Source: Terracidiphilus sp. (GTDB lineage: Bacteria; Acidobacteriota; Terriglobia; Terriglobales; Acidobacteriaceae). From it: a DNA stretch of 64,000 nucleotides. Shown piece by piece: positions 40,128-44,825 of this stretch. The notes under the pieces are model-generated. The model did not search any database, was not told the origin of the DNA, and saw nothing but the letters and a program-made list of their open reading frames with translations. The translations under genes and the position numbers were made by a program. How positions within the stretch are numbered: position 1 is the first letter of the stretch; each line of letters begins with the position of its first letter. Location: contig DATGFX010000086.1 in assembly GCA_035308825.1 (NCBI GenBank), positions 20,283 to 84,282 of the forward strand, given 5' to 3'.

Positions 40128-40865
40128 GTGCCGACGGCTTCCCAAGCCAAGCGAATCGTGAAGGTTTTCCGTCACCCCGGGGTGGTGCGCGCCACGCACT
40201 GGCTGACCTTCGTCGCGTTCATCGGGTTGTTGATTTCGGGCGGCGAGATCGTGATCCCGCATCCGCGCTTCTATTGGGGCGAGGTGGGGAACGTGAACAC
40301 GAAACCGTTGTTCGTGGTGCCGATTCCGGCGAGCCGCGATACCGTTCCGACCAGCTATCACTACGTACTCACCGACGAAAACGGATGGGGCCGGGAGCTG
40401 CATTTTGAAGCGGCATGGCTGGTGGTGCTCACGGGGCTGGTGTATGGGATTTACGGCCTGGCGAGCGGGCATTTCAGAAAGCGTCTGCTTCCCGAGCGCG
40501 GCGACTGGACGTGGCGGGCGTATTGGGATCGCATTGCGCAGTACCTGCGCCGCAAGCGGCCCGATCGCAGCGAAGAGACCTCGTATAACGTGCTGCAGAG
40601 AAGCTCGTACCTGGGAGTGATCTTCATTCTGTTTCCCCTGATGATCTGGACAGGGCTGGCGATGTCGCCGTCATTCACGGCGGTATTTCCCGCTACCGCG
40701 GCGTTGCTGGGCGGACGGCAGTCGGCGCGCACCATTCACTTCTTTGCTTCGTGGCTGCTGCTGTTTTTTCTGATTGTGCATGTGACGATGGTGAGCGTGT
40801 CGGGCTTCTGGCGGCGCATGCGGGCCATGATTACGGGATACACGCGAAGTTCCGAGGAGGACTGA
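40128..40865 (+). CDS. Cytochrome b/b6 domain membrane protein (Ni/Fe-hydrogenase cyt b-like; MsrQ-role candidate)
   Basis: Four TM with heme His residues (RATHW, RELHF, RTIHF, IVHV); YNVLQRSSY motif; TGATG-coupled to the molybdoenzyme. Confidence 0.88.
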   Translation: MPTASQAKRIVKVFRHPGVVRATHWLTFVAFIGLLISGGEIVIPHPRFYWGEVGNVNTKPLFVVPIPASRDTVPTSYHYVLTDENGWGRELHFEAAWLVVLTGLVYGIYGLASGHFRKRLLPERGDWTWRAYWDRIAQYLRRKRPDRSEETSYNVLQRSSYLGVIFILFPLMIWTGLAMSPSFTAVFPATAALLGGRQSARTIHFFASWLLLFFLIVHVTMVSVSGFWRRMRAMITGYTRSSEED

Positions 40866-41632
40866 TGAGCCCGTCGAAGCTGATGACGCGACGCAAGCTG
40901 ATTTCCGGAGGGGTTGCCGCGGCGGCGGGAGCCGGGGGCCTGGGAGCGGCGGACCGCATCGCGAAGCGGTGGGGGTTGATTCCGCCGGATGGCGGGGGAA
41001 TCTACGGTGCGGGCGAGACGCTGACGTACGCGTGCCAGCGCATCCTCAATGTCCACAGGCCAGCCCGGGAGTTTCCGCGCAGCATGATCTCGAAGAACCC
41101 GTTTGCGAATGAGGTGGCGCCGCCGACTGATCCGTTCAAAAAGCTGCAGGCAGGGGGATTCAAAGATTGGCGCCTGGTGGTGGATGGAACCGTCGCGCAC
41201 CCGCTGGTGCTCTCGCTGGCAGACCTGAAGAGCCTGCCGGTGCACAGCCAGATCACCGAGGTGGCCTGCGAAGAGGGCTGGTCGTATATCGCGGAATGGA
41301 TCGGCACGCCGCTGAGCGGAGTGCTCGAAGAGGCGGGCGTGCTGCCGCAATCGCGCTACGTGGTCTACTACCCGATTGAGAAGGGACTCTGGGAGAGCAT
41401 CGACATGGCCGATGCCACGGATCCCCATACGCTGCTGACGATGGGAATGAATGATGGCGAGTTGCCGGTTGGGTTCGGCGGTCCGCTGCGCCTGCGCTTG
41501 CCGCGCCAACTTGGGTACAAGAGCCTGAAGTACCTGACCCACATCACGGTGACGGACAACATCAGGAAGTTCGGCAACGGACAGGGTTCGGTCGATCCCG
41601 ACTACGGGTATTCGTGGTACGCGGGAATCTGA
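40865..41632 (+). CDS. Molybdopterin-dependent oxidoreductase, sulfite oxidase/MsrP-like, Tat-exported
   Basis: Start ATG 40865 overlapping upstream TGA; twin-Arg TRRKLI; WRLVVDG.V, VACEEGWS (Mo-Cys), GGPLRLRLPRQLGYKSLKYL. Confidence 0.9.
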   Translation: MSPSKLMTRRKLISGGVAAAAGAGGLGAADRIAKRWGLIPPDGGGIYGAGETLTYACQRILNVHRPAREFPRSMISKNPFANEVAPPTDPFKKLQAGGFKDWRLVVDGTVAHPLVLSLADLKSLPVHSQITEVACEEGWSYIAEWIGTPLSGVLEEAGVLPQSRYVVYYPIEKGLWESIDMADATDPHTLLTMGMNDGELPVGFGGPLRLRLPRQLGYKSLKYLTHITVTDNIRKFGNGQGSVDPDYGYSWYAGI

Positions 41633-41745
41633 CGGGAAGACGCAGGAGAGAGCACGCTTCCCATGGCCGCAGAACCAGCGGGATCTAATCCGAGTGGTGC
41701 TGGATCACAGCGGTTGAAGATTCTGGGCTTGGGTTTTGCCGCGCT

Positions 41746-41788
41746 CGTGACCCATGTCACACAGCTAACGTCCAGTCCGGAATAGAAT
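41746..41788 (+). promoter_or_regulatory. CRP/FNR-family box plus -10 (class II geometry)
   Basis: CGTGA-cccatg-TCACA (41746-41761, 9/10 to TGTGA-N6-TCACA); TAGAAT at 41783-41788; box centre about 41.5 nt upstream of the predicted +1; no good -35. Confidence 0.55.
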
Positions 41789-41795
41789 CGGTGTC

Positions 41796-42152
41796 GTGAA
41801 GCTGCACGGCAATCTTCGTCTGCGCATCGTCTTGATTGTTGCGCTGTGTGCGGCCTTCGCTGCCACTCCCGCGCTTGCCGAATACATCGCTTCGGTGCAG
41901 ACCGCGTGCCGCGGTCAGATGCCGTGCTGCCCCGTCTCAAGCGGCGAAATTGGCTGCACGCATCCGCAGTGCGGAGTTGTTGCCCGCCTGCATGCGGAAC
42001 TGGTGACGACGATCCCCGCAAGGTCAGCGGTTGTTGCCGCGGATGTATTTCGCTGGATGCCGACCATCGTCCGTTCGCGCGCGCCCTTCCCGATGGCGTT
42101 CGCGCCCCATCGGCCGCCGGTTTTTCGACTTAAGGAAGATCTCAGGATTTAA
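41796..42152 (+). CDS. Putative CutF/CruR-like regulatory upstream ORF (signal peptide, Cys cluster, C-terminal Pro-Pro)
   Basis: Sec signal (RLRIVLIVALCAAFAATPALA), ACRGQMPCCP...GCTHPQC, Pro-rich end APFPMAFAPHRPPVFRLKEDLRI; no SD, GTG 7 nt after TAGAAT. Confidence 0.75.
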   Translation: MKLHGNLRLRIVLIVALCAAFAATPALAEYIASVQTACRGQMPCCPVSSGEIGCTHPQCGVVARLHAELVTTIPARSAVVAADVFRWMPTIVRSRAPFPMAFAPHRPPVFRLKEDLRI

Positions 42153-42153
42153 C

Positions 42154-42222
42154 TCTTTCGGTGTCGTGTCTCGCTTGACTTCGCGCTTCGGCGCAAGCGT
42201 TCAACGCATTTCCACCGAAAGG
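42154..42222 (+). promoter_or_regulatory. SD-sequestering stem-loop between the uORF and the Cys-rich peptide
   Basis: TCTTTCGGTG (42154-42163) pairs with CACCGAAAGG (42213-42222): 9 Watson-Crick + 1 G-U; nested GCGC-UUCG-GCGC hairpin at 42183-42194. Confidence 0.7.
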
Positions 42223-42230
42223 ATCATTCC

Positions 42231-42401
42231 ATGAAAAAGATGTTCGCTGTTTTCGTTCTCACCCTGTCTTCGCTGTCGGCACTGGCCATCACGGCCGACT
42301 GCTGCAAGCCCGGATCGAAATGCTGCGCCGGGTCCTGCTGCGCGTCGAGCTGCTGCCAGCCTGGCTCGTCCTGTTGCCAGGGCGATTGCTGCAAGAAGTA
42401 G
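42231..42401 (+). CDS. Secreted 56-aa peptide with six Cys-Cys pairs (metallothionein-like candidate)
   Basis: Below the ORF-track cutoff. MKKMFAVFVLTLSSLSALAITADCCKPGSKCCAGSCCASSCCQPGSSCCQGDCCKK*; SD AAAGGA 7 nt upstream; classic Sec signal. Confidence 0.85.
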   Translation: MKKMFAVFVLTLSSLSALAITADCCKPGSKCCAGSCCASSCCQPGSSCCQGDCCKK

Positions 42402-42411
42402 CTTCTCCCAA

Positions 42412-42445
42412 GCCGGCTCGTGCCGAGGATTTCGGCCGGGCCGGC
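42412..42445 (+). terminator. Strong hairpin after the Cys-rich peptide gene
   Basis: GCCGGCTCG-t-GCCGA-ggatt-TCGGC-CGGGCCGGC, 14-bp stem with one bulge and one G-U; poor U-tract. Confidence 0.55.
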
Positions 42446-42506
42446 CCGGCTTAACCCCAGGCATTCCGTTTCGTTGTCCAGTCTGGCAGTTGGGTTGGTC
42501 CGCGCC

Positions 42507-42512
42507 TATAAT
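42507..42512 (+). promoter_or_regulatory. Consensus -10 TATAAT, leaderless-type spacing
   Basis: TATAAT ends 6 nt before ATG 42519; no SD. Confidence 0.6.
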
Positions 42513-42518
42513 CGCCGC

Positions 42519-44825
42519 ATGACTTTCCTAGGGGACCCCCGACGGCGCACCATTGCCTTGCTCGGCACGGGTGCGTTGTTGATTCTTGCCCTGCTGGGAG
42601 GTCTGCAGGCCTTCAATACTTCCAACGTCCGCTATCTGAATCCCGAAACAGCCGGAGAAACGCTGGCGTTTACCGGCCTTACGGTGATTGTTTTTCTGCT
42701 GTTGATGGTGCTTCTGCTGCTGCTGCTCAGGAACATTCTGAAGATTTATGCCGATCAGAGCAGCAGCGCGCTGGGAGCACGATTGCGGACACGCATGGTG
42801 CTGGGAGCGGTGTTGATCGCGCTCGCGCCAGCGGTATTCATGTTCTTATTCAGCTTCCAGCTGATGAATCGCTCGATCGACCGCTGGTTCTCGCCGAACA
42901 CGTCGGAACTGCGGGAAGACTCCACCCGAGTGGTGCTGGAACTGGCACAATACGTCACCAGCAACGCGCGCGGTGAAGCGGAATCGATTGCTGCCACGGG
43001 AGCGCCGGACGGCGACCCGGCCATGCTGCATAACGTGCTTGGATCGCATCGCATCACGCTCGATGGCGGTTTTGCCATCGTTTTTGACAAAGACCGTCAT
43101 GTGATTGCCAGCTACCTCGCGCCTGCTGAAACCAGCCCGGCAAACCTTATTCCGTGGATGCCCGATCGCAGCGATAGCGGCGGCAGCGTGACCGAGATTC
43201 CTTTATCGGGACCGCTTTCGGGCAACATCCTGAGTGCCGCGCAGCGCAACGATGAGCCGATCCTCCGCATTGGCGGACAGGACTACGCGCTGGGCATGTC
43301 GGCTACGAACTCCGGCAAGATGGTGGTTGCGGCTCTGCCGATGCCCCAGGGGCTGAGCCAGACGACCACGCGGATTCGAGAGGGCGCTGCCGCCTACTGG
43401 GATCTTTTCCGCACGCGGCGGCAGATACGAAACACCTTCTTTCTGCTGCTGCTGCTGATCACGGTGGTGGTGTTCTTTTCGAGCGTGTGGCTGGCGTTGT
43501 TTCTGTCAAAGCAGATCACGCGTCCGGTGGAGGCGCTTGCGGACGCTATGGATGAGATTTCTGCCGGAAAATACAATCACCGGGTCGCGCTGGCCACCAC
43601 GGGAGAGATGGCCGAACTGGTGCGGTCGTTCAATCACATGGCGGCGGATCTCGAGGCCACGCGGCAGCTGGCAGAGACGTCGTCGGCGCAGCTTACGGCG
43701 GCGAACCTTGCGCTCGAGGAGCGACGCCGGGAACTCGAAACGATTGTGGAGACGATTCCGAGCGGCGTGGTCACGCTGGATGCTTCGGGGCATGTTCTGC
43801 AGGCCAACCGGGCATTTGCCGTGCTGATGGGGCGGCCGGAAGACGCGGGACTTCGCGGCGAGAAGCTGGATGGGCTGATTCCGGCGGAGTGCCTGGAGGA
43901 ATTGGCGGGCATCATTCGACGAGGGCAGCGCATGGGCGCCGCTTCGACGGAGATGGAATTCCGGGTGCGGGGCCGCATCATGCACCTCGCGGTCACGAGC
44001 GCCCGGCTGGAACTGTTGCACGGGAAGGCCGGCACGGTGCTGGTGGTCGAAGATACATCGGAACTGCTGCGCGCCCAGCGCCAACTTGCCTGGAAGGAAG
44101 TGGCGCAGCGTGTTGCGCATGAAATCAAGAATCCGCTTACGCCGATTGCTCTCTCGGCGGAGCGGATTGGACGCCATCTTGACCGCAGCCTGCCCGATTC
44201 GCCGGCGGTGATCCGGAAGTGCAGCGAGGTGATTCTGAGTTGCGTTTCGACGCTGCGGACCCTGGTGGACCAGTTCTCAGCACTTGCGCAGTTCCCGGCC
44301 CCGCAGCCGCGCGCCTGCGACATGAACCAGATTGCCGATGAAGCGCTGGCGCTGTTTGCGGGCCGGCTGGACGGGATCACCGTACGCCGCAACCTGGAAC
44401 CCGGCTTGCCCATGGTGCTTGCGGATCCCGAGGCTATTCGTCGCGCTCTCGCCAATCTTATCGACAACGCGGCTGAGGCCATGCAGGGCAGCTTGCTGCG
44501 GGTGCTTGACGTTCGCAGCGGCCTGATTGAGGACGGCGGGGCCATCGAGATCGCCGTTGCCGACACGGGTCATGGCCTGACCGATGAAATTCGCGAGCGC
44601 CTCTTTCTGCCGTTTTACTCGACGAAACAGCGGGGCACGGGGCTCGGTCTTTCGATTGCGGCCAAGATTGTGCAGGAGCACGGCGGCTCGCTTCGGGCCG
44701 AGAGCAACAGTCCCAAGGGCGCTCGCTTTCTGATGCGTCTGCCGCTGATGGAGCAGCCCGCTCCCAGCGCATCGGACAAGCCTGAATCGGATACTCCCGC
44801 TCCTGTCACGGGAGCCAGCCGGTGA
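42519..44825 (+). CDS. NtrY-like HAMP/PAS sensor histidine kinase
   Basis: Start moved to ATG 42519; three N-terminal TM, SIDRWFS, HAMP, PAS, AWKEVAQRVAHEIKNPLTPI.LSAER, N box NLIDNA, DTGHG, GTGLGLSI. Confidence 0.92.
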   Translation: MTFLGDPRRRTIALLGTGALLILALLGGLQAFNTSNVRYLNPETAGETLAFTGLTVIVFLLLMVLLLLLLRNILKIYADQSSSALGARLRTRMVLGAVLIALAPAVFMFLFSFQLMNRSIDRWFSPNTSELREDSTRVVLELAQYVTSNARGEAESIAATGAPDGDPAMLHNVLGSHRITLDGGFAIVFDKDRHVIASYLAPAETSPANLIPWMPDRSDSGGSVTEIPLSGPLSGNILSAAQRNDEPILRIGGQDYALGMSATNSGKMVVAALPMPQGLSQTTTRIREGAAAYWDLFRTRRQIRNTFFLLLLLITVVVFFSSVWLALFLSKQITRPVEALADAMDEISAGKYNHRVALATTGEMAELVRSFNHMAADLEATRQLAETSSAQLTAANLALEERRRELETIVETIPSGVVTLDASGHVLQANRAFAVLMGRPEDAGLRGEKLDGLIPAECLEELAGIIRRGQRMGAASTEMEFRVRGRIMHLAVTSARLELLHGKAGTVLVVEDTSELLRAQRQLAWKEVAQRVAHEIKNPLTPIALSAERIGRHLDRSLPDSPAVIRKCSEVILSCVSTLRTLVDQFSALAQFPAPQPRACDMNQIADEALALFAGRLDGITVRRNLEPGLPMVLADPEAIRRALANLIDNAAEAMQGSLLRVLDVRSGLIEDGGAIEIAVADTGHGLTDEIRERLFLPFYSTKQRGTGLGLSIAAKIVQEHGGSLRAESNSPKGARFLMRLPLMEQPAPSASDKPESDTPAPVTGASR

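Follow-up and report, generated by a model that had tools for sequence, protein, structure and literature searches.

A candidate CutF-like translational switch upstream of a secreted poly-cysteine peptide in Acidobacteriaceae

CutF, a small protein of Rhodobacter capsulatus, is exported by Sec and senses copper through a CxxxC motif (PMC9973294). Its export, its Cys motif, its C-terminal stalling motif, and a stem-loop that shields the next gene's Shine-Dalgarno (SD) sequence act together (PMC9973294; bioRxiv 10.1101/2025.02.05.636593). Here, a locus of comparable design is described from a 64,000-nucleotide stretch of DNA (hereafter, the window) from Terracidiphilus sp., of the family Acidobacteriaceae. 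The window encodes, at positions 41796-42152, a protein of 118 amino acids (ORF1, for open reading frame 1), followed at 42231-42401 by a predicted secreted peptide of 56 amino acids; these and the other features of the locus lie on the forward strand unless noted. A sequence-only reading of the window had proposed that ORF1 is a metal-sensing leader that controls translation of the peptide. After comparison of many such loci, we hold it somewhat probable that the two genes form a self-contained cassette, acting as a CutF-like translational switch of a new, unannotated family.

The CutF-cutO system (PMC9973294, PMC8456105) and this locus share a small ORF of fewer than 150 amino acids, exported or predicted to be exported by Sec, with a Cys motif in its mature part. 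They also share a conserved C-terminal motif, a short intergenic region between two genes on the same strand, and a stem-loop by which the second gene's SD is shielded. In both cases, the first protein apparently gives no stable folded product. Of the features by which a CutF-like switch was operationally defined (PMC9973294), the size, Sec signal, same-strand gene, short intergenic region and SD-shielding stem-loop are found here.

The two systems differ, of course, in several ways. The tail of a CutF-type protein is PPP or a proline-rich run; here it is VFRLKDDLRI, placed directly at the stop codon. This tail is free of proline, and the logic of EF-P therefore does not apply to ORF1. The CxxxC motif of CutF stands 45 residues from its end, whereas the motif here is C-x5-6-CC-x8-9-C-x2-4-C, at about 59-80 residues. 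CutF regulates a multicopper oxidase; the gene in its place here encodes a poly-Cys peptide, 42-100 amino acids long across 43 intact loci. ORF1, unlike CutF, is probably leaderless. Last, the lineage here is Acidobacteriaceae, which the text of the CutF survey does not mention.

The sequence-only reading had likened the locus to CutF and CruR, both of the DUF2946 type. The architectural part of that likeness stands, in that the parts match those of published CutF; membership in the DUF2946 family (PF11162) does not. ORF1 gives no match to it at E<=1, none of 23 members of its own family gives one at E<=10, and a six-frame translation of the window's genome gives none at E<=0.1. When the leader family (alignment A5) was compared by hhalign with a genuine DUF2946 protein of Acidobacteriaceae, the probability of homology was 0.7%, and only the signal peptides aligned. 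That genuine protein (L053 1471-1884, minus strand) has HCPVC and a RGPP tail; DUF2946 occurs in 1 of 201 Acidobacteriota genomes sampled, and is thus rare in the phylum.

Nor do the sequence habits of DUF2946 leaders carry over. Some 45 residues separate their Cys motif from the C-terminal motif; the family described here likewise keeps its spacing fixed, but at other values. Their end is Pro-rich, PP or RAPP within 15 residues of the C-terminus, which is not a trait of the family described here. The ORF1 of the window does have an RPP, which the earlier reading had named as one place for a possible ribosome pause, but the prolines are not conserved: among 33 loci compared, Pro is found at position -11 in 13 and at position -12 in eight, and the invariant part of the end is VFRLKDDLRI.

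Two further kinds of leader bear comparison. In CruR (Bp2923), upstream of bfrG in Bordetella pertussis, a fixed 45 residues separate CXXC from RAPP, and the leader acts via Rho (PMC9426467). Here too an upstream ORF keeps its Cys motif and a C-terminal motif a constant distance apart, and here too it is the nascent chain that is proposed as the sensor of the ligand. In CruR, however, Rho-dependent termination occurs over a 162-nt unstructured spacer and is independent of the signal peptide, while the spacer here is structured and masks an SD, and nothing here indicates a Rho site. Arrest peptides that monitor Sec or YidC (SecM, VemP, MifM) likewise have an export signal, a variable spacer, a conserved C-terminal segment, and an SD sequestered in intergenic RNA, and there are arrest peptides whose stalled ribosome has the stop codon in its A site (PMC10987492). 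The gene downstream of these encodes an export or insertion component, whereas here it always encodes a small Cys-rich peptide, and the tail of ORF1 is unrelated to their published motifs.

The leader protein and its partner peptide

Single-sequence searches of 40 genus- and order-level genomes found essentially no relatives of the two proteins. Large protein collections do hold homologues of each, few in number, which share contigs and adjoin each other there. A profile of the leader, run against 1.84 billion representative proteins, recovered 25 clusters, nearly all of similar length and alignable from end to end; the exceptions are two that are truncated, two that are extended at the N-terminus, and one repetitive match of 794 amino acids. 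A search with the peptide recovered only 28 clusters among 5.8 billion proteins, in which every named record is a "hypothetical protein". A pattern and tblastn scan of one genome per species gave 30 loci, all in metagenome-assembled genomes of Acidobacteriaceae (Terracidiphilus and "Acidobacterium sp." among them). Within the family the distribution is patchy: among 401 Acidobacteriaceae genomes sampled, 15 have the leader, spread over 10 of 142 genera.

In all, 43 distinct loci have a leader with an intact tail, every one of them in a genome or metagenome contig of Acidobacteriaceae. In each of the 43, a secreted Cys-rich peptide is encoded 54-187 nt 3' of the leader. When the search was begun from the peptide side, the leader was found directly upstream in all four divergent homologues that were looked up. 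The census of 401 genomes gave 11 peptide matches, eight of which adjoin a leader match, the other three being at the E-value limit; five further leader-positive genomes, checked by hand, each have a peptide. These counts, which bear out the linkage that the earlier reading had expected of the two ORFs, support the view that leader and peptide are an obligate pair.

Decayed copies are also seen. At L042 (3000-3420), the leader has gained an internal stop codon and lost its terminal one, and the peptide has lost its ATG. The leader of L048 is frameshifted and no peptide is present there, while L050 has a leader with a damaged tail and an intact peptide.

ORF1 begins with GTG, has no SD upstream of it, and ends with TAA at 42150-42152. 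Residues 1-29 form a signal sequence with n, h and c regions (MKLHGNLRLRIVLIVALCAAFAATPALA|E, with the cleavage site ALA|E); this assignment was made by inspection, from an AXA-like site, together with a helix that AlphaFold predicts with confidence. The mature part carries Cys38, 44, 45, 54 and 59. These compose the candidate sensor motif C38-x5-C44C45-x8-C54-x4-C59 (residues 38-59, nucleotides 41907-41972; alignment A5). After a variable spacer, the protein ends ...APHRPPVFRLKEDLRI, followed by TAA. The tail proper, residues 109-118, is VFRLKEDLRI in the window; with its stop codon it occupies 42120-42152, and is a candidate for a ribosome-arrest or termination-pause motif.

Across the intact loci, leaders are ~110-135 amino acids long (113-128 where the arrangement of the promoter fixes the start). 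Their anatomy in alignment A5 is a signal sequence, a Cys cluster, a spacer that is unconserved and rich in indels, and the last ten residues. The Cys cluster, in the family form already given, has the consensus H-C-x2-3-MPCCP-x6-9-C-x2-4-C. Within it, CCP never varies, and conservation is at least 90% at M42, P43, C54 and C59; a second subclade has PLCQP..SPCCP......SCPAC. From the CC pair to the C-terminus is a distance of 70-80 residues, mostly 72-76. The consensus of the tail is V-F-(R/Q)-L-K-(D/E)-D-L-R-I, with the stop codon directly after it, and within subclades its conservation extends to ~22 residues.

A codon analysis shows where selection has acted. Synonymous divergence is saturated throughout the leader, the proportion of synonymous differences (pS) being about 0.6-0.7. 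The ratio of nonsynonymous to synonymous differences (pN/pS) is 0.80 in the spacer, 0.73 in the signal sequence, 0.48 in the Cys motif, and 0.07 in the tail, where the last 10 codons have pS 0.67 and pN 0.048. For the Arg at position -2, the codons CGG, CGC, AGG, CGA and CGT are all in use. Because synonymous sites are saturated, the ratio is so low, and the Arg codons are so varied, the tail is conserved at the level of amino acids; that it might be conserved as DNA or RNA, for a promoter or for pairing, is ruled out by the same analysis. This pattern of substitution supports the view that ORF1 is translated and is selected as a protein.

It might be argued instead that ORF1 is not a gene, and that the ~430 nt upstream of the peptide are a structured 5' untranslated region or riboswitch in which the frame is incidental. 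Such an argument could point to the GTG start and the missing SD, and to the gene callers, which missed the leader on some contigs (L011, L055). However, saturated synonymous sites, invariant tail residues and varied Arg codons effectively refute it. The reading frame survives the indel-rich spacers across all 43 loci, and the intergenic region matches no Rfam family at E<=1. We therefore give this view next to no credence.

If ORF1 is a protein, what kind of protein is it? AlphaFold, given the family alignment, is confident for the signal helix only; the rest of the chain has a per-residue confidence score (pLDDT) of roughly 50-65. Searches of Pfam, NCBIfam and the PDB, for families and for solved structures, found no relatives of ORF1. 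An export signal, a neutral ruler of fixed length, and invariant residues abutting the stop codon are, as far as sequences can tell, the pattern of an arrest peptide and not that of a folded periplasmic protein.

The stop codon itself adds to this picture. Over the 43 loci the leader ends with TAG in 28, with TAA in 15 and with TGA in none, and an A follows the stop codon in 34. Among long ORFs of the window and related loci, TGA makes up 37-63% of stops. This avoidance of TGA implies that termination at that codon is seemingly under selection. It could reflect the specificity of a release factor, or the value of less leaky read-through into the helix that follows.

In the window, the product of the second gene is MKKMFAVFVLTLSSLSALAITA|DCCKPGSKCCAGSCCASSCCQPGSSCCQGDCCKK, a signal peptide followed by a mature part of ~33 amino acids that has six Cys-Cys pairs; the secreted peptide with 12 Cys of the sequence-only reading is thus as it had been drawn. 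Its best match in Pfam is Keratin_B2_2 (E=0.15), and its matches in NCBIfam and the PDB are confined to the signal peptide; no known metallothionein family or structure is matched in any of the three. Like the metallothioneins (SmtA/BmtA) and the Cys triads of ArsR and ArsD, the peptide is very rich in Cys, and it lacks a hydrophobic core. As(III) and soft metals are classically bound by thiols that are vicinal or close together, and metal binding is, by analogy, a candidate function for it. Unlike SmtA/BmtA, it carries a Sec signal, and would act outside of the cytoplasm.

One locus (L045, on G116:C124) has a longer peptide, ~100 amino acids in its full frame (cut at 77 in the 43-locus set), with at least six CC pairs set between Lys/Glu-rich linkers (…AACCEGAKADCCKDGKCAETKCCEGGECKGGECCKDAKCCGG…). 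Its length implies that the target can expand by gaining repeats. Elsewhere, at L009 5043-5291 and L010 2012-2260 (minus), gene callers annotate an antisense ORF of 82-87 amino acids and not the Cys peptide; a matching antisense ORF exists in the window (42201-42464, minus strand). With peptides miscalled and leaders missed, the family is under-annotated in public data.

RNA that masks the ribosome-binding site of the peptide

The sequence-only reading had noticed that a strand just past the leader could pair with the SD of the peptide. This strand, TCTTTCGGTG (42154-42163), begins 1 nt past the TAA of ORF1, and pairs over 10 bp, one G.U included, with CACCGAAAGG (42213-42222). The latter belongs to the SD strand CACCGAAAGGA (42213-42223), whose SD, AGGA at 42220-42223, stands 7 nt before the ATG. 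An inner hairpin, GCGC-UUCG-GCGC (42183-42194), closes the loop of the masking structure. In a fold of 42130-42260, the structure of minimum energy includes the helix between anti-SD and SD strands. Folded alone, the intergenic region of the window beats shuffled sequences only modestly (z = -1.94, with 10 of 200 shuffles as good), so that the case for something other than chance rests on comparison among loci.

Such a comparison was made with the 33 loci. The duplex between the 18 nt after the stop codon and the 20 nt before the start codon has a mean energy of -13.6 kcal/mol, against -6.6 kcal/mol for shuffled strands and -5.7 kcal/mol for other windows of the same ORF. In 21 of the 33, no more than 5 of 200 shuffles match it. 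In an alignment built with a covariance model, compensatory changes are found in seven of the 10 pairs of the SD helix; pair 20/245, for example, is UA in 11 loci and CG in 11, while pair 23/242 is GC in six, AU in five and CG in three.

Controls on the same alignment gave a consistent answer. The cells of the helix are paired in 79.8% of cases, against 23-60% when the partner strand is slid. Pairs changed on both sides number 12; shuffles give 7.0 +/- 1.4, and 12 is attained in 2 of 500. The covariation score is 0.220, against 0.155 in shuffles (0 of 500 reach it). An alignment of this type is fitted to the structure, and is thus biased towards the helix; a count based on MAFFT, with the structure named, agrees with it. 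The helix that had been read from one sequence is therefore conserved among its relatives and covaries in them, as that reading had anticipated.

The inner hairpin is better preserved still, with 99% of its cells paired across the 33 loci and a stem that is nearly invariant. It alone was recovered by RNAalifold from a plain MAFFT alignment of 30 spacers, because shifts of register hide the outer helix from that method. In most loci, the masking strand begins 1-3 nt past the stop codon. A second, extended helix, predicted in the window between the last codons of ORF1 and the start region of the peptide, does not survive synonymous changes in L012 and in other loci, and is therefore not counted as conserved.

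The proposed switch and its ligand

These parts suggest a way in which the cassette might work. A class-II CRP/FNR-type promoter would set off transcription right at the GTG of ORF1 or beside it, and the mRNA would be leaderless; some other loci instead have an ArsR gene adjacent to the cassette. ORF1 would be exported co-translationally via Sec. With the ribosome at the end of ORF1, the Cys cluster would be 59-80 residues behind the peptidyl-transferase centre and already in the periplasm, while the tail VFRLKDDLRI would fill the upper exit tunnel. In the free mRNA, the 10 nt just past the stop codon would pair with the SD of the peptide, the GCGC hairpin would close the structure, and initiation would be blocked.

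A ribosome on the stop codon would cover and unwind the masking strand, and so free the SD. The mRNA channel of the ribosome and its helicase reach ~11-13 nt downstream of the P-site codon, so that most of that strand would be unwound by a ribosome whose A site holds the stop codon. A longer dwell on the stop codon would then give more poly-Cys peptide. The tail would slow termination, and the fate of the exported Cys cluster, which might bind a thiophilic ion such as As(III), Sb(III) or Cu(I) or might become oxidized, would tune the dwell time. Periplasmic conditions would, in this way, set the output of a periplasmic, thiol-rich, metallothionein-like scavenger. What the comparison of loci shows is the pairing of the genes, selection on the tail as coding sequence, a spacer held to length, a covarying helix over the SD, the arrangement of the promoter and the ars surroundings in one subclade; we infer that initiation is leaderless and that ORF1 is exported and stalls ribosomes, along with the direction of control, the ligand and what the peptide does.

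A plainer account is translational coupling. Here, ORF1 would be a functional periplasmic protein (a chaperone, a carrier, or a partner of the peptide), its tail would be kept for some role of the mature protein, such as interaction or as a degradation tag, and the helix would simply make the peptide proportional to ORF1, with no regulated pause and no sensing. The obligate pairing of leader and peptide would follow from this, as would the moderate conservation of the Cys motif (pN/pS 0.48) and the absence of a known arrest motif from the leader. Plain coupling does not, however, lead one to expect a spacer that is near-neutral (pN/pS 0.80) and yet held to length, or a chain without a predicted fold beyond its signal helix. 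Conservation is packed into the 10 residues that abut the stop codon (~22 within subclades), as it is in arrest peptides that interact with the tunnel, and the avoidance of TGA is left without explanation. On balance, we judge coupling of this plain kind unlikely, while according it real weight.

If the cassette is instead a switch with a sensor, the sole functional hint about the ligand comes from five loci of one subclade, where it lies inside or beside ars gene clusters. The order of genes is ArsR, leader-peptide, ArsC-like, ACR3 at L056 (596-3147); ArsR, leader-peptide, ArsM, MIP, ArsC-like at L033 (2437-5606); ArsR, the degenerate cassette, ArsM, ArsC-like at L042 (2525-5044); ArsC-like and ArsM, ArsR, leader-peptide at L027 (900-3454); and ArsR, leader-peptide at L038 (2365-3546). 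ACR3 (318.9 bits), ArsM (286-357 bits) and the ArsR-family matches all score above cut-off, whereas the ArsC-like proteins, though best matches, fall below the equivalog cut-off. As(III) is typically bound by three close cysteines (PMC13674352, citing work on ArsR), a rule that fits both the Cys cluster of the leader and the Cys pairs of the peptide. The ars context points to ligands of the As(III) type rather than to copper.

A more specific form of the proposal can be offered, if only tentatively. The cassette may represent a new class of arrest leader, outside of DUF2946, that pauses on VFRLKDDLRI-UAG/UAA, whose nascent Cys triad reads periplasmic As(III), Sb(III) or other thiophilic ions, and which thereby gates a poly-Cys-Cys scavenger. 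This is possible, but we would not call it probable. For the window's own copy, metal sensing is something that we infer, and a redox or disulfide signal is a live alternative.

In another context, seen in ~20 loci, a TPR-secretin gene is followed by the cassette, and PQ-loop and TauE genes run on the other strand; a HAD hydrolase gene is seen upstream in L016. The secretin gene, which encodes ~650 amino acids (L016 1006-2949), ends ~45 nt before the leader in most loci outside of the window's clade, and the CRP/FNR-type box overlaps its 3' end. A secretin directly upstream of a small, secreted, Cys-rich and taxonomically patchy peptide might bring to mind a disulfide-rich toxin, akin to a bacteriocin or to a ribosomally synthesized and post-translationally modified peptide, with ORF1 as its immunity or export partner. 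But modification enzymes, ABC exporters and immunity-like membrane proteins are not conserved nearby, the secretin is absent from both the window's clade and the ars clade, and ORF1 has no predicted fold. A toxin is, we think, very improbable.

Several observations weigh against a regulated, ligand-sensing switch. Any terminating ribosome would open a helix placed where this one is, and this would explain the RNA evidence without regulated stalling. The tail matches no known arrest motif and has no prolines, though it may bear a faint likeness to the MifM segment ...KVFRMN...DEED. In about one third of the loci the duplex between the post-stop and SD strands is weak or shifted in register, and in L017 and L040 the post-stop strand pairs with the start codon in place of the SD. 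The varying register implies that the rule is that the post-stop sequence masks the initiation region of the peptide, and not that it forms one fixed helix. Initiation at GTG on a leaderless mRNA is usually inefficient. The ars link is limited to one subclade; no metal genes flank the window's copy, whose neighbours are an alanine dehydrogenase (AlaDH), an MsrPQ-like pair and NtrYX, and no metal-homeostasis neighbours were found in the window's clade or the secretin clade.

Should the more specific proposal be correct, a nascent chain would here, for the first time, sense a ligand of the arsenic type, and an extracytoplasmic "metallothionein" would for the first time be under such control. If the tail slows termination, it would be a proline-free arrest motif with an unusual preference for stop codons, informative about the control of release factors. 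The comparison suggests that the design of CutF, by which the periplasm is sensed through a nascent chain under export and the ribosome site next in line is uncovered, has arisen independently in Acidobacteria. As a regulated product, a tiny secreted peptide made up for the most part of Cys pairs would also be new. The occurrence of the cassette inside or beside ars clusters suggests a possible extracytoplasmic layer of defence against arsenic or soft metals in bacteria of peat and soil. The whole cassette is ~700 bp long, and could serve as a compact biosensor part.

Promoter, neighbours and borders of the cassette

When 41400-42800 of the window was read and its ORFs listed, each element named by the sequence-only reading was found at its coordinates, the activator box and -10 hexamer among them. 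The box, CGTGACCCATGTCACA (41746-41761, a palindrome of CRP/FNR type to which no strand is assigned), has the form CGTGA-N6-TCACA and lies ~41.5 bp upstream of the inferred start of transcription. The -10 hexamer, TAGAAT (41783-41788), stands 7 nt upstream of the GTG of ORF1, and is invariant in alignment A1.

The full arrangement (nGTGn-N6-nCACn, 20-22 nt, TAnnnT, 6-7 nt, in-frame start) is present in 22 of 33 loci, with GTG as the start codon in 19 and ATG in three; the gap from -10 to start is 6 or 7 nt in 21 of the 22. Another five loci retain the -10 and the start. A box at about -41.5, with the -10 at such a spacing, implies that transcription starts at or beside the start codon, and that the mRNA of ORF1 is probably leaderless. 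The CRP/FNR-type box is absent from the four ars-linked loci that were scanned (L027, L033, L038, L042). Transcriptional input thus varies among loci; the tail of the leader and the masking RNA are constant.

In the genome of the window, the strict arrangement occurs three times only, before ORF1, hypC and a phosphoketolase gene, and the last two promoters share its leaderless geometry. A looser box, GTGA-N6-TCAC, has 157 sites genome-wide, against ~69 expected by our own estimate from base composition. Boxes at C58:33220, C89:22998, C29:187036-187093, C73:83464, C12:277037 and C81:121847 belong, respectively, to genes (confirmed with Pfam) for hypC, phosphoketolase, NiFe-hydrogenase small subunit, Usp, rubrerythrin and 2-oxoacid:ferredoxin oxidoreductase; looser boxes also precede small proteins that bind cyclic nucleoside monophosphates. 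Judged by such company, the genes with boxes may form a regulon for low oxygen or energy stress, to which the cassette would belong. Because the loose box is only about twice as frequent as expected, this regulon is a lead only.

In the window's clade (eight loci), the order of genes is AsnC, AlaDH, an optional cytochrome b561 with a molybdenum oxidoreductase, the cassette, and NtrY/NtrX. In the window, the optional genes (40128-41632) overlap in their frames and make an MsrPQ/YedYZ-like pair, a cytochrome b561 (PF01292) with a molybdopterin oxidoreductase (PF00174). Among related loci, the pair is found in the window and L011 only, which implies that it was inserted between AlaDH and the cassette.

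These neighbours, and the regulon, bear on the identity of the signal. The same switch might respond to something other than a metal: the thiol-disulfide state of the periplasm (Dsb activity, oxidants, oxygen), or the flux of export through Sec. The peptide would then be a redox buffer or a sink for oxidants, and not a binder of metals. A box shared strictly with hypC and phosphoketolase and loosely with genes of low oxygen and energy stress would suit such a signal, as would an MsrPQ-like pair just upstream in the window and L011, and NtrYX downstream. But most loci have no MsrPQ-like pair, the enrichment of the loose box is as slight as noted above, and the ars context of five loci favours a thiophilic metalloid. 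A signal of this other kind seems to us rather improbable.

On its 3' side, the cassette ends with a GC-rich hairpin (42412-42445; centroid energy -29.8 kcal/mol), kept among close relatives (alignment A1). The strong closing hairpin of the earlier reading is thus real, at about -30 kcal/mol, though it has no U-tract, and a scan for terminators made no call of an intrinsic terminator there. It is the probable 3' end of the two-gene transcript. Beyond it, the gene for an NtrY-like kinase has a promoter of its own (CTGGCA-18-TATAAT, 6 nt, ATG at 42519; 42483-42521), kept in L009 and L011, and this marks the boundary of the cassette. That gene appears also to be leaderless, to judge from the same geometry of -10 and ATG. 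The conserved N-terminus of the kinase, MTFLGDP, begins at 42519, and not at the GTG at 42420 that opens the longest listed ORF.

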